A DNA stretch of 64,000 nt from Acidimicrobiia bacterium (GCA_050248955.1 JBFWRK010000015.1:43585-107584); one strand, 5' to 3'. Numbered from the stretch's first letter, positions 3,467-35,443 are shown. Program-made: numbers and translations. The notes: generated by a model not told the origin, from the letters alone.

Positions 3467-3489
3467 CCACGCACCGACCAGACGCACTC

Positions 3490-3519
3490 CTCGGCCCCGG
3501 CGACCACGCCGGGGCCGAG
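3490..3519 (+). terminator. GC-rich stem-loop downstream of rpmA; possible intrinsic terminator without a U-tract
   Basis: Perfect 12-bp inverted repeat ctcggccccggc / gccggggccgag with a 6-nt loop, 24 nt after the rpmA stop. No T-run follows, so function is uncertain. Confidence 0.45.
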
Positions 3520-3531
3520 TCGCGTCGCCGT

Positions 3532-4728
3532 GTGGATCGCCGGCACCGCCTCGCCACCGATCCTGCGTACACCTACCTGCTCAGCTTCGTCGCGATCGGG
3601 CTGCTGCTCAGCGTGATCGGGCCGGCACTGACCCAACTGCGCCGCCAGGTCGGCGTCTCGCTCGCGTCGATCTCCGTGCTCTTCGCCGTGCAGTCGCTCG
3701 GCTACCTCCTCGGGTCGATCCTCGGAGGGCGGCTCTACGACCGCGGGCTGGGGCACCGGGTCATGGCGGGCGCGCTGGTCGCGTGCGGGATCAGCATCGC
3801 GCTCGTCCCGGCGGTCGGCACCCTCGTCGGGCTGAGCTGCCTGTTCTCGGTGATCGGCTTCGGCGCCGCGGCGATCGACGTGGGTGGCAACACCCTCCTG
3901 GTGTGGAGCCGAGGCGACGCCGTCGGGCCGATGATGAACGCGCTCCACTTCAGCTTCGGTGTCGGCGCCCTCCTGAGCCCGGTGCTCATCGACCGTTCGA
4001 TCGCCTGGGGTGGTGACCTGCGGATCGCGTGCTGGCTGGCAACCGCGCTCAGCGTGGCGATCGCCGCAGTCCTGCTCACCCGCCCTGCACCGTCCAGGTC
4101 ACGGATCGAGGTCGTGCGCCCACCGGGTTCGCGCCGGCCCCGGCCGCCGGCGCTGCTCGTCGCATTCGCCGTCTTCTTCCTGCTCTACGTCGGTGTCGAG
4201 CTTGGGTTCGCCGGATGGATCCACACCTACGGTGAAGAGCTCGAGCTGGGCGGACCCCGGGGGCCGGCGCTGCTGACGGCGCTGTTCTGGATCGGCTTCA
4301 CGGGCGGGCGGCTGCTCGGCGTGGTCTTCGCCCGGCGGGTGGAACCCGCGACGATGCTGCTCGGTTCCTGCCTCGTCGCCGTGGTCGCTGTCGGCGGTCT
4401 CGTGCTCGGCGACGGCACGCCTGCAGTGGTCTGGATCGGCACGTTCGTGTTCGGGCTCGGCGTCGCCCCGCAGTTCCCGACGATGATCTCGTTCGCCGAA
4501 GCGCACCTGCGCCTGACTGGATCGGACACCTCGTGGTTCGTCGGCGCTGCCGGACTCGGCGGGCTGGTCCTGCCGTGGGCGATCGGCCAGGTGATCAGCG
4601 AGACCGACGTCCATGCGATGCCGTTGATCGTGTTCGCCGTCGCCGCGGCGACCCTGCTCTGGTTCCTCGTCGTGCGCGGCATCGCTGCTCGCCACCTCGA
4701 ACGTCGCGACGCCAGCGGCGGTCCGTAG
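3532..4728 (+). CDS. MFS-type transporter
   Basis: 398 aa, about 12 hydrophobic segments, Gly-rich MFS-like loops (GGRLYDRGLGHR). GTG start; high GC3. Confidence 0.7.
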   Translation: MDRRHRLATDPAYTYLLSFVAIGLLLSVIGPALTQLRRQVGVSLASISVLFAVQSLGYLLGSILGGRLYDRGLGHRVMAGALVACGISIALVPAVGTLVGLSCLFSVIGFGAAAIDVGGNTLLVWSRGDAVGPMMNALHFSFGVGALLSPVLIDRSIAWGGDLRIACWLATALSVAIAAVLLTRPAPSRSRIEVVRPPGSRRPRPPALLVAFAVFFLLYVGVELGFAGWIHTYGEELELGGPRGPALLTALFWIGFTGGRLLGVVFARRVEPATMLLGSCLVAVVAVGGLVLGDGTPAVVWIGTFVFGLGVAPQFPTMISFAEAHLRLTGSDTSWFVGAAGLGGLVLPWAIGQVISETDVHAMPLIVFAVAAATLLWFLVVRGIAARHLERRDASGGP

Positions 4729-4814
4729 GGCGCCGGGAACGCCGCGCCGCAGCGCCGTGGCAGGCTGCCGGTCGGGTCGCTCTGGGCAACGAGGATCGCA
4801 ACAGGAGGTGCTCC

Positions 4815-6089
4815 ATGTGGTGGTTGATCGGAGTCGTGCTCGTTGTCGTCGTGATCGCGTCAGCCGGCCTGATTCTCGGCCAGCGCCGCCGCGGTCGCGA
4901 CGGTCGGTGGCGGTCGACTCGGCAGCGGTCCACTGCGCCCGCCGGCACACCACCGCCGAGGAGCGCCACCCCGCCAGCGTCAGAGGAGCCATCGGTCATC
5001 AACGACCCCGAGACCGCGATCACGGCCGTGTACCCGGAGTGGGTGCAGCCGGTCGTCGGGAACACGCTGCTCGTCTTCGCGCACCAGATCACCTCGTTTC
5101 GCGACGAGTTCGGTACCGAACGCTTCCCCGACGAGGTGATCGCCGAGCTCGCTCGTCGCGAGTTCGACTCCACCGACGAGCTCGCCTCGACGCGCGTCGC
5201 GGCGCTGCCCGAGCTGAAGCGGGGCGTCGAGCTGACCCTGAGCGTCGAGATCGACGGCGCCGAGGTGTGGCCCCGCAGCCAGACCCAGCCGCTCGAGGAA
5301 CCGGTGCAGCGGGCGATGTTCAGGTTCCGGTTCCCGCAGCTGCCGCCCGATGGACGGGCCACGGGGGAGGTCACGGCGATGGTCGGCCCGCTCACCGTCG
5401 CCGTAGTCCCGATCGAGTTGCAGGTCGCACTCATCAACGCGTTCGTGTCGGCACGTCCCAAGCGGTCGACCGCGCACGTCTACCAGTCGATCTTCGCGTC
5501 GTACTCGCATCGCGACACCGAGATCGTCGAGGAGATCGAGCGGGCGATCGCGGCGCTCGGCAACCCATACCTGCGCGACGTGGCCGCGCTCCGCAGCGGT
5601 GAGGAGTGGGACGAGCAGCTGCTCGAGATGATCGACGGTGCCGACCTGTTCCAGCTCTTCTGGTCGTCGAACTCGATGAGATCGCCGCACGTCCGCCGGG
5701 AGTGGGAGCACGCGCTCGCCCTGAACCGGCAGGGGTTCATCCGCCCGATCCGCTGGGAGGACCCGATGCCGACGGACCTCGTGGCCGGTCTTCCCCCGCC
5801 AGCGTTGAGCAAGCTCCACTTCCACCTGTACGAGCGGGCACACGACTCCCGCCCGGTGCCGCCGGCTGCTCCGCTGCTCCCGCCACCCACATCCAGGGAT
5901 GTCAGCGTCCCGCCACCGCCACCGCCACCGCCACCGCCGGCGGCGCGCCTACCTCCTGCTCCCGTTCAGTCGGCGCACCCGCCGCCGTCCTTGCCGCACG
6001 CCGGGCCTCGCCGGTCGCGGCGGCTCGTCGGCGTCGCGGCGATCGCCTTGGCCGTCGCGCTCGCGGTGCTGCTGGTCGTGATCCTGTAG
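4815..6089 (+). CDS. TIR-like domain protein with an N-terminal TM helix, a Pro-rich linker and a C-terminal TM tail anchor
   Basis: ATG 4815 is preceded by AGGAGG (4804-4809); the upstream part of the listed ORF (4533-) is Arg-rich junk. TIR-like block IFASYSHRD...LFQLFWSSNSMRSPHVRREWEHAL spans about 5481-5775. Hydrophobic helices at both termini. Confidence 0.7.
   Translation: MWWLIGVVLVVVVIASAGLILGQRRRGRDGRWRSTRQRSTAPAGTPPPRSATPPASEEPSVINDPETAITAVYPEWVQPVVGNTLLVFAHQITSFRDEFGTERFPDEVIAELARREFDSTDELASTRVAALPELKRGVELTLSVEIDGAEVWPRSQTQPLEEPVQRAMFRFRFPQLPPDGRATGEVTAMVGPLTVAVVPIELQVALINAFVSARPKRSTAHVYQSIFASYSHRDTEIVEEIERAIAALGNPYLRDVAALRSGEEWDEQLLEMIDGADLFQLFWSSNSMRSPHVRREWEHALALNRQGFIRPIRWEDPMPTDLVAGLPPPALSKLHFHLYERAHDSRPVPPAAPLLPPPTSRDVSVPPPPPPPPPPAARLPPAPVQSAHPPPSLPHAGPRRSRRLVGVAAIALAVALAVLLVVIL
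5910..5939 (+). repeat. (CCGCCA)4-CCGCCG hexanucleotide repeat encoding ten consecutive prolines
   Basis: Read directly from the sequence; lies inside the TIR-like CDS. Confidence 0.9.
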
Positions 6090-6106
6090 CACCGGGCGGC
6101 GTTCGC

Positions 6107-6148
6107 TTGACGCTCATCGGGATCGCTCTCATACTTTCTCGGAGCGAT
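6107..6148 (+). promoter_or_regulatory. Candidate sigma-70-type promoter overlapped by a 7-bp inverted repeat, upstream of the protease/giant-ORF operon
   Basis: TTGACG (6107-6112), 17-nt spacer, CATACT (6130-6135), in a locally AT-richer patch. The inverted repeat atcgctc (6122-6128) / gagcgat (6142-6148) brackets the -10 region. Confidence 0.3.
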
Positions 6149-6237
6149 GCACAGGTTGCCCAGATGGGGTGGAGGCGCCTAGGCGGGTTATGGCTCGTCA
6201 CCGAGTGCCCCTCGACGTTCGTCGCGCCGGAGGACCG

Positions 6238-7632
6238 ATGCCGAGGTCACGCGAGGAGTGGGAGGCGGAGCAGAACCGGCTGCTGGCCGGCTACGAATCC
6301 GTGCGCGCTCGCCTCATGCAGATCCCCGGCGTCGTCGAGGTGGGTGTCGGCCTCCGCTGCCGTGACGGCGCGATCGAGGAAGAGGCGGTCTACGTCGTCT
6401 CCGTGGTCGAGAAGCTCCCACCAGATCAGGTGCCGGACGGCGAGCTGGTTCCGCCGACGATCGACGGCGTTCCCACCGATGTCGAGGTCTTCCACGAGCC
6501 GCGACTGCTGCTCGGGTTCGGCGACGAGGACGACACCAAGAACTACGCGACGAAGGTCGGCGGCATCAGCATCAGCGCCGACGGAGCGGGAGGCAGGGGC
6601 ACGCTCGGCTGCTTCTGCAGGGACAACACGAACAACACGGTCGTGATGCTGAGCAACCACCACGTGCTCATGGCCCGCTCGGCCGAAGCGGGGTCGGGCG
6701 TCGGCCAGCCCGAGCACGAGTCGTCGTGCTGTTGCACCTGCAACGAGATCGGCAAGGTGGTGCGGGGCGACAAGAACATCGACGGCGCAATCGCCACGAT
6801 CAACGCCGATGTGCCTTTCTTCCCGAAGGTGCGGCGGATCAAGCGGAGTGACGGCACGGTCGAGGAGGAGGGGCTGATCAACGGTGTCGCCGACCCGGTC
6901 ATGAACCAGATCGTCTGGAAGGTCGGCAAGAAGACCGGGTTGACGAGGGGCAGGATCAGCAAGGTCACGCCGCGATTCGAGGTGAGCGTCGAGGCCGCCT
7001 TCACCAGGTTCGCCGACAAGGGTGATTCGGGATCGGTGGTGGTGGAGAAGGCGAGCGGCAACGTCGTGGGGCTCCTCAACGGGATCACCACCGAGGCAGG
7101 GACCGTCGGCGTGATGCGGAGCATCACGGCGGTCCAGAACGTGCTCAACATCACCGTCCTCGTCAGCGACCCGAGCGCTGTCTACACGGAGGCCGCCGAC
7201 GACGAGGACGACGAGGAGCTCTTCCCACTCCCGGCTGCTTCCCCCTTCGAGTCGCTCGTGGAGCGTCTGCGGACGAGTGAGCCGACGCGCGAGATCCTCG
7301 TGGCCCTCCAGCGCCACGTCCCCGAGGCGCTCACCCTCGTGAACCGCCGCCGGGCGTTCACGGTGGCCTGGCACCGGAACCGTGGCCCGGCGTGGCTCGC
7401 GGCGTTCGGGCGCAGCGCCCGCGACCCGATCTACCGGGTGCCGGAGGAGATCGACGGCGTGCAACGCGCCGAAGCACTCGCTGCGATCGCAACCGCACTT
7501 CGGGCGGAGGCGAGCGATCTGCTGGCCGCCGATCTCGACCACTTCGGACCGACGCTGCTGACGGCGTTCCAGTCCTCCGGCACCGTCGACGAGCTCCTCG
7601 GCCGGTTCGAACCAGGGCTGGTCGGCTCATGA
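6238..7632 (+). CDS. Trypsin/chymotrypsin-fold serine protease, paralog A (N-terminal alpha/beta domain, S1-like core, C-terminal helical domain); no signal peptide
   Basis: His/Asp/Ser contexts LSNHHVL, IDGAIA, KGDSGS. Start chosen at ATG 6238 (GGAGGA 6229-6234) by alignment with the N-terminus of paralog B. CCCTC motif at 6727-6741. Confidence 0.85.
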   Translation: MPRSREEWEAEQNRLLAGYESVRARLMQIPGVVEVGVGLRCRDGAIEEEAVYVVSVVEKLPPDQVPDGELVPPTIDGVPTDVEVFHEPRLLLGFGDEDDTKNYATKVGGISISADGAGGRGTLGCFCRDNTNNTVVMLSNHHVLMARSAEAGSGVGQPEHESSCCCTCNEIGKVVRGDKNIDGAIATINADVPFFPKVRRIKRSDGTVEEEGLINGVADPVMNQIVWKVGKKTGLTRGRISKVTPRFEVSVEAAFTRFADKGDSGSVVVEKASGNVVGLLNGITTEAGTVGVMRSITAVQNVLNITVLVSDPSAVYTEAADDEDDEELFPLPAASPFESLVERLRTSEPTREILVALQRHVPEALTLVNRRRAFTVAWHRNRGPAWLAAFGRSARDPIYRVPEEIDGVQRAEALAAIATALRAEASDLLAADLDHFGPTLLTAFQSSGTVDELLGRFEPGLVGS

Positions 7633-9008
7633 TCAGCTACGCCGAGAAGAAGGCGGAGACCGAGCGCCTGCTCGCGCTGCTGCCCGAGGTGAGATCGCAG
7701 CTCATGCGGATCCCAGGCGTGACTCGCGTCGCGGTCGGGATCCGCGAACGGGCGGGTCAGCTCACCGAGGAGTTCGTCTTCCGGGTGCACGTCGAGGACA
7801 AGCGCCCCGAGTCGGAGCTGACGCCCGAGGAGGTCGTGCCCAGGATGATCGCGGGCGTGCCCACCGATGTCGTGCTCAAGCGGCGGGCCGTGCCCGAGGT
7901 CGGGTTCAACGACGAGAACGACCGCACGTCGTACTCACCGAAGGTCGGTGGCAGCCGGATCGGCGCCGAGGTCGCTGGCGGCACGGGCACGCTCGGGTGC
8001 TTCTGCAAGCGCACCGACAGCGATGCAACGGTGCTGCTCAGCAACTGGCACGTGCTGATCGATCCAGGTGGCGACATCGGCGACGGCGTGGGTCATCCCA
8101 AGTGGCGCACGTCGTGCTGCTGTGCGTGCGGGAAGATCGGCGAGGTGCTCGACTTCGACGAGGACCTCGACTGCGCGATCGCCGAGCTCGATTCGGGAGT
8201 CGTGTTCGCGCCGAAGATCCGCCGGATCCTGCGGCCCGACGGAACGGTCGAGCAGGAAGGCATCATCGCAGGGAGCGCGGCTCCGGCGGTCCTCGACGAG
8301 GTGTGGAAGGTGGGCGCCCGCACCGGCCTGACGCGGGGGATGATCACCGACGTCGACGAGTCGGAGATCGAGGTGCACCCGCTCGATCCCTTCACCCGCA
8401 TGAGCAACAAGGGTGATTCCGGGTCGGTCTACGTCAGCCTCGCCACCGGGATGGTGTGCGCACTGCACAACCAGGGCGACGGCACGCTCGGCTTCGGCAT
8501 CCCGATCGACAAGGTCATGCTCGCGCTCAAGATCGAGGTGATCCCGACGGACACCGACACCGAATTCGAGGTGATCGACTGGGTCGAGTCCAATGGGCGA
8601 CCGCCCGTCACCTCGCCGTTCGACGACGTGGTCGACGGACTCCGCACCACTCCTGCAGGCCGAGACCTCCTGCACCTGTTCGACCGGCATCGTTCGGAAT
8701 GCCTCGACCTCGTGAACCACGTGCGCCGGTTCACGGTCGCATGGCATCGCAGCCAGGGGCCCGCATACGTCGCCGCACTCGCCCGAAGCGCTCGGGATCC
8801 GTCGTTCCGCATCCCGCGGACGTTCGCCGGGGTAGAGCGTTCGGTTGCGACGCGGCAGCTCTCCGACGCGCTGCGAAGGCTCGGGAGCCACGAGCTGGTC
8901 GCCGACCTCGACTCGTGGGGCCCACCACTCCAGCGGGCGCTGTCCGAGGGTGACAGCGTGGCCGAGCTGATCGAGATCTGGGAGGACAGCCGGCAACCCG
9001 CCGGCTGA
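7629..9008 (+). CDS. Trypsin/chymotrypsin-fold serine protease, paralog B
   Basis: ATGA start/stop overlap with paralog A (7629-7632). LSNWHVL, LDCAIA, KGDSGS. CCCAC motif at 8115-8129. Alignable with paralog A over its full length, including the C-terminal FTVAWHR...SARDP domain. Confidence 0.85.
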   Translation: MISYAEKKAETERLLALLPEVRSQLMRIPGVTRVAVGIRERAGQLTEEFVFRVHVEDKRPESELTPEEVVPRMIAGVPTDVVLKRRAVPEVGFNDENDRTSYSPKVGGSRIGAEVAGGTGTLGCFCKRTDSDATVLLSNWHVLIDPGGDIGDGVGHPKWRTSCCCACGKIGEVLDFDEDLDCAIAELDSGVVFAPKIRRILRPDGTVEQEGIIAGSAAPAVLDEVWKVGARTGLTRGMITDVDESEIEVHPLDPFTRMSNKGDSGSVYVSLATGMVCALHNQGDGTLGFGIPIDKVMLALKIEVIPTDTDTEFEVIDWVESNGRPPVTSPFDDVVDGLRTTPAGRDLLHLFDRHRSECLDLVNHVRRFTVAWHRSQGPAYVAALARSARDPSFRIPRTFAGVERSVATRQLSDALRRLGSHELVADLDSWGPPLQRALSEGDSVAELIEIWEDSRQPAG

Positions 9009-9013
9009 GCATC

Positions 9014-12000
9014 ATGGCGACGAACGGCACGCTGGCGACGATCGCCCGCTCGCTCGCGACGCTCATCCAACCGTTGGAGGACCGTCTCCAGGCCGGCGAT
9101 CTCCGACTGCTGCTCGCCGAGCTCGGTCTGAACTTCCCCACGTCGGTCGACGCCAACGGGGCGCTGGCCGCAGCAGGCCAGGCGGCAGAGCAGCGCATCA
9201 CCGGACTCGCGCCGACGATCCAGGCGCTCGCCGATGCGATCAGCGACGAGAACGTGGGCGCGGTGGTGTCGAAGGCGCTCGACCTGGCGAACGCGATCGT
9301 CGGCATCATCGGTGACGTCGAGGAGCTGGCTGACGCCATCTCGGCGCTCCCCGGCACCGGGATCCCCCCGGCGGAGCTCGACGCGTTCGCCGCCCAACTG
9401 CCGGGTCGTTTGATCGACTACCTGCTGGTCTGCAGCCTCGAGGAGGTGCCAGGAGCAGCCGAGGCGCTCGACTTCCTGGGCGCGATCGAGCGCACCGACG
9501 TCCCCGCCGCCGATGCCGCGCACCCCGCGTTCCTGCGTCGCGCGCTGCACCTCGATCAGCTGACGAACTTCCTCTCCGATCCGGCCACCCACCTGCGGAA
9601 CAAGTACCAGTGGGGCGATCCCGCGTTCACCGGGCTCGCGCTCCTGCAGAAGATCGCCGCGCTGCTCGGCCGCGCCGGTGTGCCCGCCGTTCTCGACACC
9701 GGTGGGCCGGTGCCGGTTCTCGATGTGATCGTGCTGGAGGTCAGCCCGAAGCTCGACGCTCCGTTGGGCCTGCGCGTCAAGATCGTCCACCCGCTGCTGA
9801 TCGACCAGTCGCAGCCCTTCACGCAGGACGACTGGAGCTTCAACGTCACGCTCGACGCGCAGCTGGGCATCGGGGTCGAGATCGTGATCATGCCGACCGA
9901 CGGCGTCACGATGAAGCCGGCAGGGTCGGAACAGGTGCAGGGCGACGTCCTCGTCGAGTGGGTCGGCGGCACGCCGGGCGGCGAGCGATACCTCGTGCTC
10001 GGCGAGCCGGGCGGGAGTCGAGTCGAGGTGCAGCAGTTCATCGCCCGCGCTGGTGCTGGGTTCGCGTGGGATGCCGCGACCGGGCAGGGGCAGGGCACGT
10101 TGAACGTCTCCGGGGAGGTCAAGGGAGGCCGGATCGTCGTGTCGATGGCCGCCGCCGACGGCTTCCTGAGCACCGTCCTCGCCGGCTTCGCGATGGAGTC
10201 CGACTTCGATCTCGGCATCGGTTACTCCACCAAGGAGGGCGTGTACTTCGCCGGCTCCGCCACGCTCGACATCCAGCTCCCGCTGCACGTACAGCTCGGT
10301 CCGGTCGAGCTGAGCGCGCTCACCATCACCATCGGGTTCGAGGATGCGACGTTCCCGATCGGCCTGCGGGCGAACCTCAAGGCCGCGCTCGGGCCCCTTC
10401 AGGGCGTCATCGAGCAGATGGGGATTGGCGCCGAGATCAGCCTCCCCGACGACCGGAAGGGCAACGCCGGTCCCGTCGACTTCCAACTCGTGTTCCTGCC
10501 GCCGAGGGGCGTGGGGTTGGCGCTCGATGTCGGCGTTGTGCGGGGTGGCGGCTTCCTCTTCATCGATCCCGACCGCGGTGAGTACGCGGGTGCGCTCGAG
10601 CTGGCCCTGTTCGAGGTCGTCACGATCAGCGCGATCGGCATCATCACGACGAAGATGCCCGACGGCTCGAAAGGCTTCTCGCTCCTGATCATCATGTCGG
10701 TCGAGTTCGGTAGCGGCGTCCAGCTCGGGTTCGGGTTCACGCTGTCGGCCGTCGGCGGGCTCGTCGGTGTGAACCGGACGATGAACCTCCAGGCACTGGC
10801 CGAGGGCATCCGCAGCGGGGCGATCGAATCGGTGATGTTCCCGCACGACATCATCGCCAACGCACCGAAGATCATCAGCGACCTGCGCACGTTCTTCCCG
10901 CCGCGCGAGGGCACGTTCCTCATCGGGCCGATGGTGAAGATCGGCTGGGGAACGCCCACCCTGGCCAGCATCTCGTTGGGGATCATCATCGAGATTCCCG
11001 GCAACATCGCGATCGTCGGCATCATCAAGGTGGCGATCCCGGCTGACGACGTGGCGTTGATCGTCCTCCAGGTCAACTTCATCGGCGCGATCGAGCTGGA
11101 CAAGCAGCGCGTCTGGTTCTTCGCCGCGCTCTTCGAGTCGCGCATCGTGTTCATCACGATCGAGGGCGAGATGGGGCTGCTCGTCGCGTACGGCGACGAT
11201 GCCAACTTCGTCCTCAGCGTCGGTGGGTTCCATCCGCGTTTCTCGCCACCGCCGTTGCCCTTCCCCAGCCCGAAGCGGATCTCGGTCGGGCTGTTGAACT
11301 CACCCGTCTCGCGGGTGCAGATCGAGGGCTACTTCGCCGTCACCTCGAACACCGTGCAGTTCGGCGCCCGCGTGGAGGTCTTCTTCGGCCTCGACATCCT
11401 GAACGTGCAGGGCCACCTCGCGTTCGACGCCCTGTTCCAGTTCTCGCCGTTCTACTTCATCATCGAGATCTCGGCGTCGCTCTCGGTGAAGGTCTTCGGC
11501 GTGGGGCTGTTCTCCGTGGGCGTGCGCGGCTCGTTGGAGGGTCCAGCGCCGTGGCATGTGAAGGGCCACGGATCGATCTCGCTGCTGTTCTGGGACATCG
11601 ACGTCGACTTCGAGACGACATGGGGCGATTCGGCCAACACCGAGATGCCGCCGCTCCCGATCATGCCGATCATCACGGCGGAGCTCGAGAAGGTCGAGAA
11701 CTGGCGGGCGCTGCTGCCCACGGGGGCCAACCTGCTGGTGTCGCTGCGCAGCATGCCCGAGACGGAAGCGGCGCTCGTGCTCCATCCGGTCGGCGTGCTG
11801 CACATCTCGCAACGTGCGCTCCCGTTGGAGCTGACCCTCGACAAGGTCGGCTCGCAGAAGCCGAGTGACGTGAACCGGCTGTCGATCGCCGTCACCGGCG
11901 GTGGCATGGCCAAGAAGGGCGACGCCTTCGAGCAGTTCGCGCCGGCCCAGTTCCAGGACTTCTCCGATGCGGACAAGCTCTCCAAGCCGGCGTTCGAATC

Positions 12001-12418
12001 GGAGCGTTCCGGCCTCGATCTGTCTGCTGCCGGCGACGACTTCCGTTCGTACGTGATGGTTCGCCGAGTCGTCCGCTACGAGGAGATCATCCTCGACTCG
12101 AACTACAAGCGCTTCGCACGGCGCTTCCAGGGCTTCTTCGGGGTGCTGTTCGACTTCTTCCTCAACGGCTCGGCGGTGACCAAGTGCCAGCTGTCGAATG
12201 CGGTCGCGTCGAAGCTGCAACCGTTCGACGAGAAGATCCAGGTGCACGGCGAGACGTACACCGTCGCCAACGTCGCCGACAACACCGCGTTCGCCACCGA
12301 CTCGGTCGCGTTCCACAGCCAGGCGAGTGCGAGTGAGTACCTGAACAGCCAGATCGCCGGCAACGCGGCACTGGCCGATGCCATCCACGTGATCCCGACC
12401 TTCGAGATGGCTTCATGA
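9014..12418 (+). CDS. Giant ORF 1 (1134 aa), uncharacterised: helical N-terminus, then a long Gly/hydrophobic beta-rich region with a GGFHPRF motif
   Basis: Starts 5 nt after the protease B stop. Uniform high GC3. No signal peptide, TM helix or P-loop seen. The central region reminds me of a DUF6603-type domain (unverified recollection). Confidence 0.85.
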   Translation: MATNGTLATIARSLATLIQPLEDRLQAGDLRLLLAELGLNFPTSVDANGALAAAGQAAEQRITGLAPTIQALADAISDENVGAVVSKALDLANAIVGIIGDVEELADAISALPGTGIPPAELDAFAAQLPGRLIDYLLVCSLEEVPGAAEALDFLGAIERTDVPAADAAHPAFLRRALHLDQLTNFLSDPATHLRNKYQWGDPAFTGLALLQKIAALLGRAGVPAVLDTGGPVPVLDVIVLEVSPKLDAPLGLRVKIVHPLLIDQSQPFTQDDWSFNVTLDAQLGIGVEIVIMPTDGVTMKPAGSEQVQGDVLVEWVGGTPGGERYLVLGEPGGSRVEVQQFIARAGAGFAWDAATGQGQGTLNVSGEVKGGRIVVSMAAADGFLSTVLAGFAMESDFDLGIGYSTKEGVYFAGSATLDIQLPLHVQLGPVELSALTITIGFEDATFPIGLRANLKAALGPLQGVIEQMGIGAEISLPDDRKGNAGPVDFQLVFLPPRGVGLALDVGVVRGGGFLFIDPDRGEYAGALELALFEVVTISAIGIITTKMPDGSKGFSLLIIMSVEFGSGVQLGFGFTLSAVGGLVGVNRTMNLQALAEGIRSGAIESVMFPHDIIANAPKIISDLRTFFPPREGTFLIGPMVKIGWGTPTLASISLGIIIEIPGNIAIVGIIKVAIPADDVALIVLQVNFIGAIELDKQRVWFFAALFESRIVFITIEGEMGLLVAYGDDANFVLSVGGFHPRFSPPPLPFPSPKRISVGLLNSPVSRVQIEGYFAVTSNTVQFGARVEVFFGLDILNVQGHLAFDALFQFSPFYFIIEISASLSVKVFGVGLFSVGVRGSLEGPAPWHVKGHGSISLLFWDIDVDFETTWGDSANTEMPPLPIMPIITAELEKVENWRALLPTGANLLVSLRSMPETEAALVLHPVGVLHISQRALPLELTLDKVGSQKPSDVNRLSIAVTGGGMAKKGDAFEQFAPAQFQDFSDADKLSKPAFESERSGLDLSAAGDDFRSYVMVRRVVRYEEIILDSNYKRFARRFQGFFGVLFDFFLNGSAVTKCQLSNAVASKLQPFDEKIQVHGETYTVANVADNTAFATDSVAFHSQASASEYLNSQIAGNAALADAIHVIPTFEMAS

Positions 12419-15400
12419 CCTCGCCCCTCGGCACCTACTCGTTCCTGCCGTGGCTCCGGCAAGGGTTGGCGAACCAGATCGAGACCGGCGACTTCGACGA
12501 CGACGTGTTGGTGCGCGCCCAGATCGACGTGCAGCTCGAGCTGCGCGGCGACAAGGTCGCCGGGGGCACGCAGACCGCTCCGCTGACCAAGTCCGTCGCA
12601 CTGTTCGGCCCCGGTGACATCGTGGGCGTCGACCGCCGGGCGATCTTCCGTGTGGAACCGCGCGACTGGGCGACGAACTTCGAGCCCAACTACCTCCCCG
12701 CGATCGAGTTCTACGACGAGGACCTGCCGTGGCGCTACACCCCGGCAGCCCCCGACGGCAGCACCGGCCGGCTGCGGCCGTGGCTCGCGCTGATCGTGCT
12801 CGAGGAGACCGAGTTCGTCGAGGGTGCGAACGTCAAGGACCGCCCACTTCCGTACGTCGACGTCGCCGACCTCGACCCGTTCCCACGGGCCGACGAGCTC
12901 TGGGCCTGGGCCCACGTGCACGTCAACCGCAGCCTGGCCGCGAGCGACGCCGAGTTCGTGTCGAAGGACATGGTGGCCGTCATCCCGAAGCTGGTCGGTG
13001 TGCTGCAGGAGAACCCGGACCTCGCCTATTCGCGCATCGTCTGCCCTCGCAAGCTCGAGCCGAACAAGGCGTACCACGCGTTCTTGATGCCGACCTTCGA
13101 GTCCGGCCGACGCGCCGGTCTCGGGCTCGATCTCGCCGACGTTGCGGCGACGACGTCGTCCTGGGATCCAGCCGGCCGGCCGGAGGCGCAGTCGTTCCCG
13201 TACTACTACCGCTGGTTCTTCCGCACGGGCGACAACGGTGATTTCGAGACGCTGGTGCGGCTCCTCGTGCCGAAGCCGGTCGATCCGCGGGTCGGGTTCC
13301 GCGAGATGGACGTGCAGGAACCGGGCTCGGGTGTCCAGGGACTCGACAAGCCCGAGCTCGGCGGCATCCTGAAGCTCGGTGGCGCGTTGCAGCCTCCCGA
13401 CCCGGTGCCGCTGCCACCGCCCGACAAGTACGAGACGTGGGACGAGCCGTTCCCCCGACCGCTGCAGATCGACCTCGCCCGCCTCGTCAACCTCCCGGAC
13501 GTCTACCGGTCCGAGGGCGACCCCGACCCGATCATCACCCCACCGCTCTACGGCACCTGGCACGCGATGACGAAGCGGGTGCTCGACAACCGCGACGGCA
13601 CTCCTGTGCTTCCTGCGAACAACTGGGTGAACCGGCTCAACCTCGATCCGCGGTTCCGGGCCGCGGCGGGCATCGGCACCAGGGTGATCCAGGACCGGCA
13701 GGAGATGTTCATGGACGCCGCCTGGGGGCAGATCGGCAAGGTGCTCGAGGCACAGCGGCGCATCTGGCTCGGGCAGTTCGGCCTGCTCGTCTCCGACATC
13801 TGGTACGACCGGCACCTCGTACCGGCAGTCGGCGTCAGCCGGCAGCAGGGTCTGCTGCTGATGGCGCCGCTCAACAAGCGGATCGTCGGCAACGGCAGCA
13901 CCGTGCACCATGCGTACGGGCAGAGCCTCGTCCAGCCGACGATGACGTCTGCGGCGCTCCGTCGGGTCGTGCGACCCCGTGCACGACTCGTCCGCGAGCT
14001 GCCGTTCGACCAGACCACGACACCCGGGCAGCTGATCGAGCGGGTCAACGCCGGCGAGGTGAGTGCCGCCCCACCGAAGTCCGCGCCGCCGGGTGTCGTC
14101 ACGGCGGGCGAGCTCGCCGAGGAGACCCGCCCGAAGGGTCTTCCCGCGTGGCTGCTCGACTGGTTGAGGCGGTTCCGTCACCTGGCCCTCCTGGTACTGA
14201 TCGTCGCCATCCTCGTCGCGGTGCTCCTGGTCGTGCTGCTGTCGCCGGCCGTCGGGATCGTCGTCGCCGTCGTGCTCGTCGGGGTGGCCGTGTACATCGC
14301 TCGATTGCTCAGCCGATGGCGCCGGGGCCTGCTCGCATCGGATCTGCTCGGCGAGGATCAGACGCCGGAGTCGATCGATGCGCTCCCGGGTGTCTCCGAC
14401 TTCGTGGTCTCCGAGCCGGGCTCCGGTTTCGTCCCGAGGGACCGGGGCGCCGACAGCGTGGAGGCCAGGCGGTTCAAGGAGGCGCTGCGGGACACCTTCG
14501 AGCTGCGTCAGGCGAGCGACGCGGTGGGCCGAACGCCCGTCCGCGGCGCCATCGACCTCGGCGCGGTCGCGACCACCGTGATCGAAGCCGTCCAGCCGTC
14601 GCGCACCATCCCGAGGCGCGTGCTCGCCGGCATCTTCGTGCCGCCCCGCATCACCGGCGATCTCGTCACGACGCCGAAGCGGTTCGTGGAGCCCATGGCG
14701 TACCCGATCATCGACGTCCCGATGTACGAGCCGCTCAAAGACCTGTCGTCGGAGCTCTTCCTGCCGAACATCAACCTGATCGAGCCGAACAGCGTCACGT
14801 TGCTGCAGACGAACCAGCGGTTCATCGAGTCGTACATGGTCGGGATCAACCACGAGTTCGCCCGAGAGCTGCTGTGGCGCGAGTACCCGACCGACCAGCG
14901 CGGATCGACGTTCCGGCAGTTCTGGGACGTGCGCAGCTTCTTCAACGCCGAGAACCTCGACGACGAGGCGCTCAAGGAGAAGCTCCGCGACATCCCGCCG
15001 CTGCACCGCTGGGCACCCGACGAGGAGCTCGGTGACCACGACAACCGGGAGCTCGGTGGTGAGAAGGAGGACGAGCTCGTGCTCGTCATCCGTGGCGAGC
15101 TGCTCAAGCGTTATCCGAACGCCGTGATCTACGCCCATCGGGCGTGCTGGCAGCGCACGAGCGTGACTCCCGCCGACGACGACGTCGAACCGTGCGCGAG
15201 GTCGGGCGCGATCGACAACACCGTCGAGCGCCGGCTCGTGTCGCTCACGACGGCCGAGGAGCTGAACCCACCGACGAGCAAGGTGCTCACGCCCCTGTAC
15301 GAGGCCAAGGTCGACCCCGACATCTACTTCTTTGGCTTCGATCTGACGGTCACCGAAGCCAAGGGACGCGACGGGTCGGACCCGAACGACGATCCCGGCT

Positions 15401-15717
15401 GGTTCTTCGTGATCAAGGAGCGGCCGGGCGAGCCGCGCTTCGGGCTCGACAACGAGGAGCCCGACGCGCTGCAGGTCTGGAACGACCTGTCGTGGCCGGT
15501 CGCGAAGCCGGGCCCGGGCCCCTTCCTCGAGATCGCGGCATCGCCCGCCACGCTCGACGTCACCGACCCCGGCTCGGCCGACGAGAAGTTCCCGCAGTTC
15601 GAGGACGACCGGAACGTGCACTGGAACCGGAGCACCATCAGCTCGGCCGAGCTCGCGTACGTGCTCTTCCAGGCGCCCGTGCTCGTGGCCTTCCACGCGG
15701 CGGAGATGCTGCCGTGA
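12415..15717 (+). CDS. Giant ORF 2 (1100 aa), uncharacterised, with a central two-helix transmembrane hairpin
   Basis: ATGA overlap with ORF 1 (12415-12418). The hydrophobic stretch LALLVLIVAILVAVLLVVLLSPAVGIVVAVVLVGVAVYIARLL (about 14182-14310) is flanked by Arg-rich segments on both sides. Confidence 0.85.
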   Translation: MTSPLGTYSFLPWLRQGLANQIETGDFDDDVLVRAQIDVQLELRGDKVAGGTQTAPLTKSVALFGPGDIVGVDRRAIFRVEPRDWATNFEPNYLPAIEFYDEDLPWRYTPAAPDGSTGRLRPWLALIVLEETEFVEGANVKDRPLPYVDVADLDPFPRADELWAWAHVHVNRSLAASDAEFVSKDMVAVIPKLVGVLQENPDLAYSRIVCPRKLEPNKAYHAFLMPTFESGRRAGLGLDLADVAATTSSWDPAGRPEAQSFPYYYRWFFRTGDNGDFETLVRLLVPKPVDPRVGFREMDVQEPGSGVQGLDKPELGGILKLGGALQPPDPVPLPPPDKYETWDEPFPRPLQIDLARLVNLPDVYRSEGDPDPIITPPLYGTWHAMTKRVLDNRDGTPVLPANNWVNRLNLDPRFRAAAGIGTRVIQDRQEMFMDAAWGQIGKVLEAQRRIWLGQFGLLVSDIWYDRHLVPAVGVSRQQGLLLMAPLNKRIVGNGSTVHHAYGQSLVQPTMTSAALRRVVRPRARLVRELPFDQTTTPGQLIERVNAGEVSAAPPKSAPPGVVTAGELAEETRPKGLPAWLLDWLRRFRHLALLVLIVAILVAVLLVVLLSPAVGIVVAVVLVGVAVYIARLLSRWRRGLLASDLLGEDQTPESIDALPGVSDFVVSEPGSGFVPRDRGADSVEARRFKEALRDTFELRQASDAVGRTPVRGAIDLGAVATTVIEAVQPSRTIPRRVLAGIFVPPRITGDLVTTPKRFVEPMAYPIIDVPMYEPLKDLSSELFLPNINLIEPNSVTLLQTNQRFIESYMVGINHEFARELLWREYPTDQRGSTFRQFWDVRSFFNAENLDDEALKEKLRDIPPLHRWAPDEELGDHDNRELGGEKEDELVLVIRGELLKRYPNAVIYAHRACWQRTSVTPADDDVEPCARSGAIDNTVERRLVSLTTAEELNPPTSKVLTPLYEAKVDPDIYFFGFDLTVTEAKGRDGSDPNDDPGWFFVIKERPGEPRFGLDNEEPDALQVWNDLSWPVAKPGPGPFLEIAASPATLDVTDPGSADEKFPQFEDDRNVHWNRSTISSAELAYVLFQAPVLVAFHAAEMLP

Positions 15718-18700
15718 GCAACTTCGGCGAGGTTCGCGACCAGCTGCGGGCGGCCCGCCGTCTACGCGACGAAGCGGAGGCGGCGGTCTTCGCCGCCGGT
15801 CAGCAGCTGAAGCAGATCGCGGCGCGAGAGATCCAGCTCGCGCGCATCTTCGACCCCAGCAACCCGCAGCACGTCGCGATGCAGGAAGCGCTCGATCAGC
15901 AGCGTGCCGATTCGGACGCGGCACTCGCACGTGCACGCGAAGCACGGCGGAGGGCGTCGCTCGAGGGCGATCGGTTGGTCGAGGACTTCTCCGTCTTCAC
16001 CGATCCGAGAAGGGGGATCGGCCGGCTGTCCGATGCGATCCCGATCCTGCTGATGCCGGTCCGCCTCGAGACCCGCTTCAAGAAGTCGCCGCGAGAGCCG
16101 GGTACGCCGGCCGTCGACCAGCTGTGGGTGCGTGTGTACCCCGACGACTGCTGGATCGACTCGTTCGACCCGGCCCTGACCACGTCGGAGCTCAGCAACG
16201 CTCACGTGTACTGGACGTCGATCTGGCAGGCAGGGGGAGTCGAGGACCAGGAGCGCGGGGCCTGGCGCGCGCTCGCCTCCGCCCATGGCTCCGGTCGCGC
16301 TGCGTGGATCGTGCAGCAGTACCAGCCGGCGAACCCGGGCGACCATCCGACGAAGTCGCAGCCTGAGGACGTCGTGCTGACGATCGTGGCCGAGGCGGCG
16401 CTCCCTGCAGCGGAGCTGGCGGCGGTGACACCGTTCTGGCAGGAGACGTGGCGCGCCGACGGCGACGCGGCCAGGATCGCCGCGGCGCGAGCCGCCCTCG
16501 ATGCCGCGGTCGGGTCGCAGCGCGCCGAGGAGCTCGCGGCCACGACCGTGCCCGCCAACGTCTCGTCGCCGCTCGCGACGGGGTTCACCAAGGACGACGT
16601 CGAGGTGTCGGTGGCGGTGGTGGTGCTGCCCCCGACAGGCACCAAGCAGAACGAGTGGGCACAGGCGCCGCGCGCCAACGTGCTTCCCGATCGTTTCGTG
16701 TTCATCGGCTACGAGACGGCGGACGATCCCAGTCCGGTGGTGGTCCTGGGCCGACCGGTCCCGTCACCGTTGCAGCTCGGCCCGGACCCGACCGCCGAGG
16801 AGGCCGAGCAGCTGCGCCACGACGAGAACGGCGACCTCATCGTGCCCGACGAGCTGCTCTGGATGTCCGACTTCGACCGGGCCGTCGAGGTCGGGATGGG
16901 GATCGTCGTCGATCTCACGCGGGCGCAGGCGCAGCGGGGCTTCCATCGCGTGTTGGTGGTCGGCCTGCGGCTCAACGCCGACGAGCACGCGGCCCAGAGC
17001 GAGCTCGAGACCCTGCTGCAGCACCACTCGTACCGACGCACGGGCCTCGCGATCGTGCCGCAGGGGACACCGACGAACAACACCGAGCAGGTCGGGTCCG
17101 GGCGGCTGCTCGACGACCCGGACGCCAGCTTCGACGACCTCCGCGCGGATCAGTTCACCCCCGACAGCCGCTGGCTCGACAAGCGCGACGGCCAGTGGCT
17201 GGCCGAGTACCTCGGCGTCGATCCGGAGCTGTTCCTGCACACCCACGCCGCGGGCGGGCACGATCAGGCGAGCGCCCGGGCGATGACCACGGCGTTGTGG
17301 CCGGCGACGCTCGGCTACTGGATGGAGACGATGATGACGCCGGTGTTCACCACCGGTGCGATCGAAGCCACCCGCGACTTCGTCACCCGGTTCGTCGTCG
17401 CCGGGGGAGCGTGTCCAGCGATCCGGATCGGCGAGCAGCCGTACGGCATCCTGCCCGCCACCGCGATCTCCCGCATGCAGTGGTTCGATCGGCGCGGTGA
17501 GGACATCGGTGTTGCGGGACACCTCTCCGGTGTCGGCGACGTCACGCTCGGATACCTGCAGGCCCTGCACCAGATCCTGCTCGGCATCGACCAGGACTTC
17601 CGGTCGAAGCTGCCCGGTGTCGCCTTCGTGGGTGCGCAGGGCGACGCGCACGCGCTGCTGCTCGACATCCTCGGGTTGCACTCGGGATCTATCGAGTGGG
17701 CGCAGCGTTACGCCGAGAGCTTGCAGACGTTGTTCAACCGCCTGAACCTGCTCGGTCTCGGCGGGTTCGCGATGATCCTGCGGACGATCATCGAGCGGGT
17801 CGCCGCTCGGCAGAAGCTGAGCCAGCTCGGCTACACCCGCGACTTCGACCCGTCGATCCTCGACCTGTCCTTCTCCGGACGGCACAACCTGCTGAAGGGC
17901 GGCGTCGTCGACGATCAGCCGCTGTCGGAGACCGCGCCGATTCGCGAGTACACGACGACGGGGCAGAACTACCTCGAGTGGCTCATCGACGCGTCGAACA
18001 CCTCGCTCGATGCGCTCTACGCGCAGGAGGGCTTCATCGACGACGAGCGACCGACTGCGATCCTCTACCTGCTGCTGCGGCACGCGTTGCAGCTCGGCTA
18101 CTCCGACATCAGCATCCGGCTCCACGAGCTCGCCGGTCTCTACACACCGGAGCAGGCGCTGGCGGCCCGGAGCGACGACCCGTTCCTCCACGTCCGCGAC
18201 AACACGTCGGCGAGCGAGAGCAGATACTTCCCGCTCTACACCACTGCAACCGCGATCACCGGCAATCCGACCCAGCCGGTGCACGAGTGCATCAGCGCGA
18301 ACCTCGGGACGCTCACGGTCACCCGGTACCTCTCCGAGCAGCTCGCCGCACTGGAACGGCTGAAGGATCGGTCCACAGCCCAGCTCGAGCGCGTGTTCGC
18401 AGACCACGTCGACTGCTGCGCCTATCGCCTCGACGCGTGGATGCTCGGCATCGTCAACGCGCAGCTCGCCGTCATGCGCCACATCAGGGAGACCTCCGAG
18501 GCGCCGCCCCGGCAGGGCGTGTACCTCGGTGGCTACGCGTGGCTCGAACCGCTGCGGCCCGAGGGCAAGGTCGTGGAACCAGTCGACCTCTCCGACGACC
18601 CTGACCTCGCCGAGGTGTTCGCCGAAGGACCGCCACTCGGCTTCGATGCGACGAACCAGGGCTATGTGCACGCCCCGTCGCTGAACCACGCCGTCGCTGC

Positions 18701-30255: not shown

Positions 30256-32076
30256 TCAGAAGTTCGACACCACGGCGGTGAAGACCTGTTCGATGGTCCG
30301 CGGGTTCGAAGCGTCGTAGAGCGCGGCGTTCGTCGCCTCCGCGATCCGTTTGAGCGTCGCCTTGTCGGCGCCCTCGCCGTAGCTGATCGTGAAGATCCGG
30401 ACCGGCTGTGCGCTGCCGCCCTCGGAACCCGAACGGAGCGACGCGATCAGCTGATCGAGTTGATCGGCGTCGTCGTTCAACGTGCCGTCGTCGTTCACCC
30501 CGTCCGTGAGGAGCACCACGGCGTTGATCTTGTCCGGCTCGTAGGCGCTCTTCATCGCCTCGTACGCGGCCGAGCTGACGTCGTACAGCGGTGTGCCGTT
30601 CGTCGGGAAGAGGTCGTTGATCCGAGAGCGCATCTGCTCGCGCTGGTCACCGAAGCGGGAGACGGGCAGCAGCTCGAGGTAGTTCTCGTCCGCCTGCGGT
30701 CCGAGCGCGGTCGAGAAGATCCAGAGTCCGACGAGGTCGTCGTCCTTGAACTCGTCGAGCGACGCCATCGCCGCTTGCTGCGCGAGCTCGAGCTTCGTGG
30801 TGCCGCCGTCCTCGGTGGCGGCATCGCCCATCGAGCCCGACACGTCGATGACGAGGAGGACTCGGGCGGTCTTGCGCTGCTCGGCCCACGTGTCGAGGAT
30901 CGCGGTGAGCACGGCCGGTTCCGGCACCTCGAGCTCGGCCTGCGGCTGCGCCGGATCGACGCCGTTCGCGGCGACGATCGGCGCGCCGACCGGCACCTGC
31001 GGGTTGCCCGGCCGGAAGCCGAACTCGAGCACCTTCGCCTGGTTCTCGGGCAGCTGCACGTAGGCCTCGAACAGCGCCGCGCCCTCCTGCTGCTCTGGCG
31101 TCACCCAGTCGGCGTCGAGCACGAAGAACGGGTTGTCGGAGAAGAGCGTCCCCTCGCTCGGGTAGACCGCGACCAGCGGCACCTTCGGCACCCGCGGCTC
31201 CTCGCCCGGTGACAGCTCGCCATCCGGGTTGCCGGCGTTGTAGTCGATGATCGACTTCTCCTCGACCGCCACGGCACTCGCGTACGTCAGCGCGGTGCCG
31301 CGCGCGTCGGCGCGGAACCAGTTGTTGAGGAACGTCATCGTGATGTCGCCGTAGTGGACGACTGCGGACTCGACGCTCGCCGCGAACGCCGCGACGTCCT
31401 CCCGATTGAGGTCCTCGGTCGTGAGCCCACGGGTCTTGCCGGTTGCTGCGTAGTACTGCGCCACGGTGAAGTTGAGCCCGCTCGTGGAGAAGTTCGGGTT
31501 CGTCTTGCCGAGCCGGAACGGGCCCCACTCGGGATGGCCGTACGCGGCCCACCCCTCGGGGTCGTTGGCGAGCTCGACGATGTCCTTGAAACCGACCGGG
31601 GTCTCCGGGTAGCCGAGCGCGTCGGCCATCGGCTTCGGCATCGCGATCACGAGCGGGGTGAGCATGAACGGGGTGCCACCGGTCGCGATCTCACGGCCGG
31701 CGCGCTGGTTCACGATCGCGCCCCAGCCGCTCGCCGCCGGCGACCAGACGACGGGACGGGCGCCGTTCGTCTCCGGATCGGGCCAGCCTTCGACGAGCAA
31801 CGTCGCAGCGGCGCCCGACGCCTTGTTGTACGGCCGGACGAACGCGCAGCCGTCGGCGAGCTTCGCCGCGTCGGATCCGTTGAAGTCGTTGGCGAGCTCG
31901 GTGAGCAGCGCGATCTTCTCGGAGCTCACGGCCATGTCGACGGTCGCGCAGTCGCCGGGGTCGGCGTCGCCGAGATCGGACGTGTCGTCGTCGCCGGAGC
32001 TGGTGGAGCAGGCGGCGAAGGCGAGGCAGGCGGCGACGAACGCACCCGTCACGAGGCGGGTGCGGCGAGCGGTCAT
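30256..32076 (-). CDS. Lipoprotein with a solute-binding-like N-terminal domain and a C-terminal von Willebrand factor A domain
   Basis: Start ATG 32076 gives MTARRTRLVTGAFVAACLAFAAC (lipobox-like). MIDAS motif VIDVSGSMG. ATGA overlap with the upstream gene. Confidence 0.8.
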   Translation of the reverse strand: MTARRTRLVTGAFVAACLAFAACSTSSGDDDTSDLGDADPGDCATVDMAVSSEKIALLTELANDFNGSDAAKLADGCAFVRPYNKASGAAATLLVEGWPDPETNGARPVVWSPAASGWGAIVNQRAGREIATGGTPFMLTPLVIAMPKPMADALGYPETPVGFKDIVELANDPEGWAAYGHPEWGPFRLGKTNPNFSTSGLNFTVAQYYAATGKTRGLTTEDLNREDVAAFAASVESAVVHYGDITMTFLNNWFRADARGTALTYASAVAVEEKSIIDYNAGNPDGELSPGEEPRVPKVPLVAVYPSEGTLFSDNPFFVLDADWVTPEQQEGAALFEAYVQLPENQAKVLEFGFRPGNPQVPVGAPIVAANGVDPAQPQAELEVPEPAVLTAILDTWAEQRKTARVLLVIDVSGSMGDAATEDGGTTKLELAQQAAMASLDEFKDDDLVGLWIFSTALGPQADENYLELLPVSRFGDQREQMRSRINDLFPTNGTPLYDVSSAAYEAMKSAYEPDKINAVVLLTDGVNDDGTLNDDADQLDQLIASLRSGSEGGSAQPVRIFTISYGEGADKATLKRIAEATNAALYDASNPRTIEQVFTAVVSNF

Positions 32077-33038
32077 CGGAGTGACTCCCAGAGGTCGAGC
32101 AGGGTGCGCAGGACACCGGCGGAGGGGATGCCGTTCGGCTCGCCGGGTGTGGCGACCCAACCCGGCGTGGCGAGCAGCGCGTCGCGGAGCTCGCCTGCGA
32201 GGCCGGCAGGGACGTCGCCCTGGGTGCTGATCACCAGTACCGCATCGGCCCGTCCCACGGGTTCAGGGTAGGCCACGGTGAAGCGTTCGGACTGCGCGGT
32301 GCCGAGGCGCGCGACCTCGGCATCGGACGCTCCGACGAGGTCGACAGCCCGACCGGTGGCGAGGGTGTCGAGCGCCGAGTCGGCGCTGAACACGAACGAC
32401 GGGACGGAGCGCTCCAGCCGGCTGAACCAGCCGAGGAAGCCTGGGTCGGCGTCGATGTCGACGGCGTTGAACGTGGTCGAACCGAAGTACGCAGCCGCGG
32501 CGCTGCCCATCGTGAGCAGGCCTGTGGCTCGTTGCGTCGGGTCGTCGTGACCGGGCGCGAGGTCGCCCCAGGTGGCGTCGCCGCCGAGCGAGCTCCAGGG
32601 CTGTCCGGCGCTCTCGCCGATGCACGTCCACGTGACCGCGCCGCCGCAGGTGCCGGCGAGCGCAGTCACCCGTTCGGGACGCGAGGCGAGCGCGAGACGA
32701 GTGCTCCCGAGCACTTCCGGATCGCCGAACGCGAGCGCCCCGAGCTCGTCGACGGCCAGACGCTCGAGCGGTGCGAAGGTGATCCAGGCATCCGGGCCGG
32801 TGCCGCCGGCGACATCGGCGAGCGTCTCGCTGAACGATTCGACCACGACGTCGACGTCGCCGAGGTCGATGTCCCGGCAGGCGTCGGCGAGATCCTGGAT
32901 GCAGGCGACGGTCGCGCCGCCACCAGACGGTCGGTCCGGCCCGTCCTCGTCTGGGTCGTCGATCGCCCGCCGCAGGAAGACAGCCCCGACGATGAGCAGG
33001 ACTGCAGCGAGGACCGCGATCACGCGCTTTGCGGCCAT
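32073..33038 (-). CDS. Membrane-anchored, substrate-binding-like protein of unknown function
   Basis: N-terminal TM helix (VIAVLAAVLLIVGAVFL). Good GC3. Translationally coupled to the VWA lipoprotein gene. Confidence 0.6.
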   Translation of the reverse strand: MAAKRVIAVLAAVLLIVGAVFLRRAIDDPDEDGPDRPSGGGATVACIQDLADACRDIDLGDVDVVVESFSETLADVAGGTGPDAWITFAPLERLAVDELGALAFGDPEVLGSTRLALASRPERVTALAGTCGGAVTWTCIGESAGQPWSSLGGDATWGDLAPGHDDPTQRATGLLTMGSAAAAYFGSTTFNAVDIDADPGFLGWFSRLERSVPSFVFSADSALDTLATGRAVDLVGASDAEVARLGTAQSERFTVAYPEPVGRADAVLVISTQGDVPAGLAGELRDALLATPGWVATPGEPNGIPSAGVLRTLLDLWESLR

Positions 33039-33069
33039 GGTGCAGGTCAGCGTAGAGGCCGGGTCGCGC

Positions 33070-35427: not shown

Positions 35428-35443
35428 CCCGGACGTACCTCCG

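Follow-up and report, generated by a model that had tools for sequence, protein, structure and literature searches.

A predicted membrane-anchored TIR protein with an Ig-like β-sandwich, encoded next to a DUF6603 cassette in an Acidimicrobiia genome

NADases of the TIR type play a central role in the immunity of bacteria, plants, and animals, and enzymatic TIR domains, e.g., those of SPARTA and SARM1, are activated by oligomerization. Single-gene TIR systems and TIR systems with transmembrane (TM) segments have been documented among the anti-phage systems of Escherichia coli (PMC11350192). Here we analyze a TIR-domain gene at positions 4815-6089 (plus strand) of a 64,000-nucleotide stretch of DNA from an Acidimicrobiia bacterium (GCA_050248955.1, JBFWRK010000015.1:43585-107584; this whole stretch is called the window below), the source genome being a metagenome-assembled genome (MAG) from a landfill metagenome. 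The gene is situated immediately upstream of a giant protease-headed operon that contains a four-gene cassette (G1-G4) with a DUF6603 gene. On balance, and with modest confidence, we read its product, P0001, as a self-contained NADase-type effector stapled to the membrane, whose adjacency to the cassette reflects residence in the same genomic island and not a conserved partnership.

The E. coli single-gene and TIR–TM systems, as well as AbTir, PdTIR, and SpbK, have the same TIR fold as predicted for P0001 and a conserved catalytic glutamate at the equivalent position. Like P0001, the E. coli systems stand alone without a dedicated partner, and some of them possess TM segments (PMC11350192). 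Compared to all these TIRs, P0001 additionally features an N-terminal anchor, an Ig-like β-sandwich, a Pro-rich spacer, and a C-terminal tail anchor; outside the TIR core it has no detectable sequence relation to any of them. The best structural matches are SPARTA TIR-APAZ and the SARM1 TIR, with the fold and the position of the catalytic glutamate in common, but P0001 has neither APAZ/Ago nor ARM/SAM domains, and the identity over the TIR core is 16-24%.

Membership in several multi-gene systems is not supported. Thoeris ThsB shares a TIR_2-type domain with P0001, yet the matches of P0001 to the ThsB hidden Markov models (HMMs) of PADLOC are weak (E 0.02-0.04), no ThsA (SIR2/SLOG or Macro-TM) is adjacent, the neighbors being an MFS transporter and trypsin-like proteins, and the β-sandwich and membrane anchors are not features of ThsB. 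The PADLOC match to SAVED_TIR of the CBASS TIR-SAVED type covers profile positions 8-95 out of 404, i.e., the TIR part only, and Pfam scans of the P0001 neighbors revealed neither a cyclase nor SAVED. SPARTA is not supported either, as there is no APAZ or Argonaute in P0001 or its neighbors. Overall, the PADLOC matches of P0001, to TIR-SAVED, Argonaute-associated TIR, and ThsB models, are confined to the TIR core, and no ThsA, SAVED, APAZ, Ago, or CD-NTase gene was found among its neighbors by Pfam and PADLOC scans.

A broader likeness is to the TIR effector domains of the multicomponent conflict systems of multicellular bacteria (Kaur et al. 2020, PMC7159879), with which the wider family of P0001 shares its partners (WD40, TPR, kinase, VWA), the kinds of organisms it occurs in, and neighborhoods with trypsin-like and caspase-like peptidases. 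The family fusions and peptidase-rich neighborhoods fit these systems; P0001 itself lacks an NTPase, a VWA domain, and a repeat sensor, and has membrane anchors only. In the passages of that paper covered here, no name was found for a module composed of a β-sandwich, TIR, and tail anchor.

The initial annotation, made from the sequence, had proposed a TIR-like block with a glutamate at the position expected for NADase-type TIRs, and both proposals are corroborated by profile and fold comparisons. Residues 226-325 of P0001 match Pfam TIR_2 (PF13676) with an E-value of 5.3e-15 and 56.4 bits, the curated gathering cut-off being 28 bits. The AlphaFold2 model of the TIR domain alone (residues 222-337; nucleotides 5478-5825, plus strand) has a predicted local distance difference test (pLDDT) score of 82.1, and its Foldseek comparison with PDB yielded more than 40 solved TIR chains at probability 1.0, with TM-scores per query of 0.55-0.70. 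The list is headed by enzymatic TIRs, namely, SPARTA TIR-APAZ, SARM1, AbTir, RUN1, and a Bacillus cereus TIR; all top 50 matches are TIR structures except BcmB (4jen), a cytidine monophosphate N-glycosidase of a related fold, and the adaptor TIRs of MyD88 and TLRs are also among the matches. The model thus supports a flavodoxin-like α/β TIR fold. The TIR-only profile and the TIR-only model were made after full-length searches had failed to show the TIR domain: neither the single protein nor the full-length profile retrieved anything but Pro-rich noise from the PDB sequences, and Foldseek matches of the full-length model were dominated by the β-sandwich, with zero TIR matches. The NCBIfam scan of P0001 produced only sub-threshold noise.

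Glu296 (codon at 5700-5702, plus strand) is invariant in 73 out of 73 aligned homologs, as are Phe227, Ser229, Tyr230, Asp234, Gly249, Asp255, Arg260, Gly262, the FQLFWS segment (residues 279-284), and Ser290. Ser290 and Glu296 form an S-x5-E pattern on the helix following strand C, similar to SxWCLxEL in plants, and in the alignments of the TIR-only profile with PDB sequences, Glu296 pairs with the glutamates of RUN1 (SRWCLDEL), RPV1, Cat1 (SDWCWDEL), and PdTIR (KEWPQKEL). In these proteins, the glutamate at this position is the one that TIR NADases use for catalysis. Sequence and fold together support the prediction that Glu296 occupies the NADase-type catalytic position.

The TIR domain is embedded in a multipartite protein. 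The gene encodes 424 amino acids between the ATG at 4815 and the stop codon at 6087-6089, and a Shine–Dalgarno sequence, AGGAGG (4803-4808, plus strand), is located six nucleotides ahead of the ATG. The longer, GTG-started open reading frame given by the mechanical call was rejected, as the GC content of third codon positions is 0.88 from position 4815 onward vs. 0.59 in the part that it would add upstream in the same frame (4533-4814); hence, the gene is real and starts at 4815. From the N- to the C-terminus, P0001 comprises a TM helix, an Arg cluster, the β-sandwich, the TIR domain, a Pro-rich linker with a run of ten prolines (Pro10), RRSRR, and the tail anchor, and all motifs, anchors, and runs listed by the initial annotation are present where it had placed them. 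The N-terminal hydrophobic segment, MWWLIGVVLVVVVIASAGLILG, forms a helix at residues 2-22 (4818-4880, plus strand; Kyte–Doolittle value 2.92; residues 2-25 in the AlphaFold2 model), followed by the Arg cluster at residues 23-38 (4881-4928, plus strand), so that the 23 residues after the helix contain eight Arg/Lys vs. one Asp/Glu. A disordered Arg/Pro-rich stretch then precedes the ordered β-sandwich at residues ~63-205 (5001-5429, plus strand). The domain of unknown type postulated by the initial annotation does exist, but its ordered part is shorter than the ~170 residues initially assigned, about 145. The TIR motifs are IFASYSHRD (residues 226-234; 5490-5516), LFQLFWSSNS (278-287), and REWEHAL (295-301). 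The linker (5826-6023, plus strand) consists of proline by 37%, includes Pro10 at residues 366-375 (5910-5939), and has pLDDT of 43-65; RRSRR (residues 399-403; 6009-6023) directly precedes the 21-residue hydrophobic tail that ends the protein, a helix at residues 404-424 (6024-6086, plus strand; Kyte–Doolittle value 3.15; residues 405-423 in the AlphaFold2 model). The mean pLDDT of the full-length model, built on 73 homologs, is 81.7. Apart from the CCG-CCA codon repeat of Pro10, the repeat search around the gene returned only chance matches of high GC content. At this codon repeat (5910-5946), the summed contig depth is very high and drawn from many organisms, and Logan contigs of the source sample break there, making it an assembly-fragile spot.

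The β-sandwich is predicted with high confidence as an all-β, Ig-like domain (pLDDT 94-97); its Foldseek matches are CARDB 3idu (TM-score per target 0.73), PapD-like chaperones, and ASH domains, and no Pfam family covers it. In the search of 1.8 billion representatives with the sandwich alone, ten out of ten tested matches have TIR_2 directly after it; judging by sequence, this TIR clade always has the sandwich as its N-terminal partner. Over residues ~55-337, P0001 aligns with more than 100 database clusters (~38-57% identity, E ~1e-45 to 1e-96), the hosts being mostly high-GC soil bacteria. At the N-terminus, family members carry fusions to WD40, Ser/Thr kinase, FHA, VWA, TPR, CHAT, receiver, or Hsp70-like domains. 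A TM-like segment follows the TIR in 99 out of 119 homologs, in 75 of them located within 12 residues of the C-terminus; thus, the tail anchor is a family trait. A TM helix also precedes the module in 18 homologs, and the doubly anchored layout recurs in some, e.g., P0017 and P0035. P0001 itself has all the traits that define the family, i.e., the Ig-like domain before the TIR, the FQLFWS...EW core, the Pro-rich spacer, and the C-terminal TM segment. The literature search yielded no paper on TIR–WD40 NADases in Streptomyces, and the family, large as it is (>100 clusters), with its TIR joined to an Ig-like domain and tail-anchored, is apparently undescribed. Its arrangement would point to activation at the membrane surface, unlike that of the soluble filament-forming TIRs studied so far.

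Anchoring at both ends, also claimed by the initial annotation, agrees with the two terminal helices, each having an Arg cluster on its domain side. Since these clusters are domain-side, according to the positive-inside rule the sandwich and the TIR are predicted to be cytoplasmic, where NAD+ (nicotinamide adenine dinucleotide) is. P0001 would then be stapled by a TM helix at each end to the inner membrane face and act as an NAD+-cleaving effector of the kind found in abortive-infection or conflict systems. In the resting state, the molecules would be inactive and dispersed on the membrane; a trigger, possibly acting via the β-sandwich or a membrane event, would cause their clustering, upon which the TIRs could form composite active sites and either consume NAD+ or make ADP-ribose-type signals.

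The initial annotation had further suggested a functional link between the TIR gene and the protease-headed operon, to be checked by the co-occurrence of TIR-like genes with the cassette in other genomes, and here the comparison turned out differently. None of 21 other genomes with the cassette has a β-sandwich–TIR gene at the cassette locus. Family-specific HMMs, which detected no TIR near other cassettes, are too narrow for divergent TIR_2 domains, and the whole genomes were therefore scanned with Pfam TIR_2 as well: seven out of 21 have no TIR_2 anywhere, including the carrier of the closest cassette (G437; 62-71% identical). In three of the 21 (G028, G003, G197), an unrelated TIR_2 gene lies within 10 kb of the cassette, encoding, respectively, a 288-amino acid TIR protein 3.5 kb downstream, behind an Mrr endonuclease gene; a 565-amino acid TIR protein 2 kb upstream, divergent; and a 702-amino acid TIR protein 7.8 kb upstream, past a methylmalonyl-CoA mutase gene. 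In one more genome (G438), a TIR_2 gene is situated 11 kb downstream of the cassette. The region of G028 with the genes of an Mrr-type restriction endonuclease and the TIR protein, ~2.5-3.5 kb past the cassette (L054, 16719-18500), looks similar to a defense island.

The closest homologs of P0001 occur in unrelated contexts. The gene of P0002, the closest one (52-57% identical), is located in a hydrogenase cluster, between hyp and NiFe-hydrogenase genes; that of P0009 resides in an integrase/excisionase (HTH_17) element (L050, 5159-12572), with a second TIR gene (DUF4062–TIR) 3 kb away; P0102 and P0110 are surrounded by ordinary metabolic genes. There is no cassette within 7-10 kb of these four genes, and no neighbor genes are shared among the four loci. 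No homolog of the TIR protein was detected at E <= 1e-10 in 40 relatives; a DUF6603 protein is encoded in four of these 40 and in seven out of 400 sampled genomes of the phylum. Both the TIR gene and the cassette are accessory, the TIR gene looks stand-alone, and the sequence comparisons do not support its conserved partnership with the cassette. As regards the giant operon, the cassette is best defined with the TIR gene excluded from its components.

At the window start, rne, rplU, and rpmA are followed by a 19.7-kb accessory region (3467-23233), past which come a dgt-like HD gene (23234-24355, minus strand) and, from 24746, obg and proB. Most same-family relatives in which the rpmA surroundings are retained have rplU–rpmA, a spacer of ~30-90 bp, dgt (minus strand), and obg. 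Since rpmA, dgt, and obg are contiguous in the relatives, positions 3467-23233 represent an insertion between rpmA and the convergent dgt-like gene. It contains the MFS gene (3532-4728), the TIR gene, two trypsin-like genes, and G1 (DUF6603), G2, G3, and G4; its borders showed no sign of an integrase, transposase, or tRNA. The next gene on the same strand, the first trypsin-like one, starts with the ATG at 6238, leaving a 148-bp spacer (6090-6237, plus strand) after the TIR gene. The gap and the candidate promoter in it, both noted initially, were recovered: TTGACG-17-CATACT at 6107-6135 is the only sigma-70-like match in 4600-6400, with 0.0 expected in shuffles. No terminator-like hairpin and no significant RNA fold (z-score 0.53) were found in the spacer. 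Soil and sediment metagenome contigs from other studies (low depth, 95-99% identical) span the MFS–TIR junction and the TIR–protease gap; the former is kept in the related strain X5 (record spanning 4692-4842). Thus, the gene order is stable within a species-level lineage, and contigs that are 95-99% identical do not constitute independent evidence.

Several points weigh against P0001 being a self-contained effector of the NADase type. Its mechanism, topology, and function are all deduced from sequence and models; the alignment of the catalytic glutamate comes from weak profile-to-PDB matches (E 0.007-0.4 for TIR entries), backed by the fold matches; and the fusion partners in the family (kinase, FHA, receiver, WD40) would fit a signaling or scaffold role, too. 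These fusions, along with those to TPR and Hsp70-like domains, the presence of some homologs among housekeeping genes, and the fact that Foldseek also gives MyD88 and TLRs at similar TM-scores, speak for a non-catalytic, regulatory TIR, serving as a membrane adaptor or a signaling node in a developmental or stress pathway. We consider such a role unlikely, as the glutamate at the catalytic position and the FQLFWS...S..V..EW block are invariant in all 73 homologs, which is typical of an active site, the best fold matches are enzymatic TIRs, and bacterial conflict systems typically show these same fusions (PMC7159879). The protein could also be an N-glycosidase with a TIR fold whose substrate is some nucleotide besides NAD+, as in the MilB/BcmB or deoxyribohydrolase types, since BcmB ranks with the top fold matches and its clade uses the same glutamate; however, the sequence profiles match TIR_2/TIR proteins and not the MilB/BcmB or deoxyribohydrolase families, and SPARTA, SARM1, and AbTir rank above BcmB in the Foldseek list, making this very unlikely.

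The genomic context allows for other readings as well, and part of it counts against mere co-residence of the TIR gene with the cassette. The three TIR_2 genes within 10 kb of cassettes exceed ~0.26 expected, given TIR counts and genome sizes, by ~12-fold (Poisson P ~0.002), the baseline being uniform placement and not the known clustering of accessory genes. Moreover, since there is no terminator between the TIR gene and the operon, and the MFS–TIR–protease order is kept in related strains, the TIR gene and the operon may be co-transcribed and locally linked in function. Accordingly, P0001 could be a lineage-specific accessory arm of the DUF6603 cassette, i.e., a membrane effector or sensor co-regulated or physically coupled with it, e.g., with G2, a membrane-hairpin protein. 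Such an arm agrees with the position of the gene on the same strand immediately upstream, within one insertion, in an order retained by the nearly identical contigs, and with conflict-type genes flanking other cassettes (hydrolase and caspase in L006, Mrr in G028). It is nevertheless quite unlikely: the TIRs near other cassettes, those at 3.5, 2, 7.8, and 11 kb, belong to other families and differ in architecture, side, orientation, and distance; a third of the cassette genomes, including that of the closest cassette relative, lack TIR_2; the closest TIR homologs have no cassette nearby; the gap contains a promoter-like site; and the enrichment was measured against uniform placement. The excess of TIR_2 is real, albeit a weak and non-specific signal; as the architectures, sides, strands, and distances vary and accessory genes are known to cluster, it is best read as shared residence in variable or defense-type islands. 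It seems similarly doubtful that DUF6603 cassettes in general are conflict systems recruiting local TIR genes as a killing or signaling arm, here a membrane NADase activated by the protease-headed complex, and that, separately, the family constitutes a new and widespread class of membrane-bound NADase immunity proteins encoded by single genes. The recurrence of conflict-type genes (TIR, Mrr, a caspase pair) around the cassettes is circumstantial evidence that the cassette itself functions in conflict. Finally, the TIR gene and the upstream MFS gene share a strand and are separated by 86 bp, both are missing from this site in relatives, and their junction is kept in strain X5, so they might form a two-gene unit, e.g., for the transport of a small molecule made or sensed by the TIR. 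This is barely credible, as no MFS gene adjoins the homologs examined, one being 7 kb off in L052, and the MFS protein has no PADLOC match.

The cassette has a wide distribution of its own. About ten loci have G1-G4 in an identical arrangement; they come from Actinomycetota, Alphaproteobacteria, Desulfobacteraceae, Planctomycetota, a Deltaproteobacteria MAG, and a MAG labeled as Nitrospirales, while the eleventh locus (L015, Herpetosiphonaceae) contains a part of G1 only; the cassette is also present in genomes G003, G017, G019, G028, G046, G064, G092, G190, G197, G344, and G354. The gene ahead of G1 is variable: it encodes a trypsin-like protein in the window, L006, and L012, an M64-like metallopeptidase of ~860 amino acids in six loci, an S8 subtilase in L008, and a DUF7800/PhoD-like protein in G003 and G197. 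These head genes are located at 6238-9008 in the window, 8566-9972 in L006, ~7400-10008 in L007, L009, L010, L011, L013, and L014, 7331-9982 in L008, 11203-13692 in L055, and 11670-14162 in L056. With its C-terminus, the S8 head of L008 matches residues ~333-423 of both trypsin-like proteins of the window, which suggests a shared docking domain. PADLOC gave no match for any cassette protein, and no paper on DUF6603 was found in the literature search.

The cassette proteins of L006 (CAZITU010000007.1, the MAG labeled as Nitrospirales) are 62-71% identical to those of the window, compared to 43-50% for the actinobacterial copies, reflecting either recent horizontal transfer or a problem with binning or labeling. 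Directly upstream of this closest cassette relative are α/β-hydrolase-like and caspase (Peptidase_C14) genes (L006, 4425-6775), a pairing that is described for conflict systems by Kaur et al. (2020, PMC7159879). In a Desulfobacteraceae MAG (L011, 2-6739), the cassette is preceded by the gene of a TcA-like ABC toxin of 2245 amino acids with the TcA_TcB_BD, ABC_toxin_N, and Neuraminidase domains. In Actinomadura chokoriensis, the cassette is closely preceded by a Tn3-family transposase gene (L014, 3625-6666, minus strand), which hints at how the cassette moves.

Farther downstream in the window (30256-36883), genes encoding a solute-binding protein with VWA, an AAA+ protein (AAA_lid_6), a MoxR-like AAA_5 ATPase, and a VWA CoxE-like protein form a set of the vWA–MoxR type, unrelated to the TIR gene. 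The source genome (G000) contains eight TIR_2 matches in total (contigs C50, C10, C18, C3, C8, and C15:117936-118232), one of them on the same contig as the window, ~10 kb past its right end.

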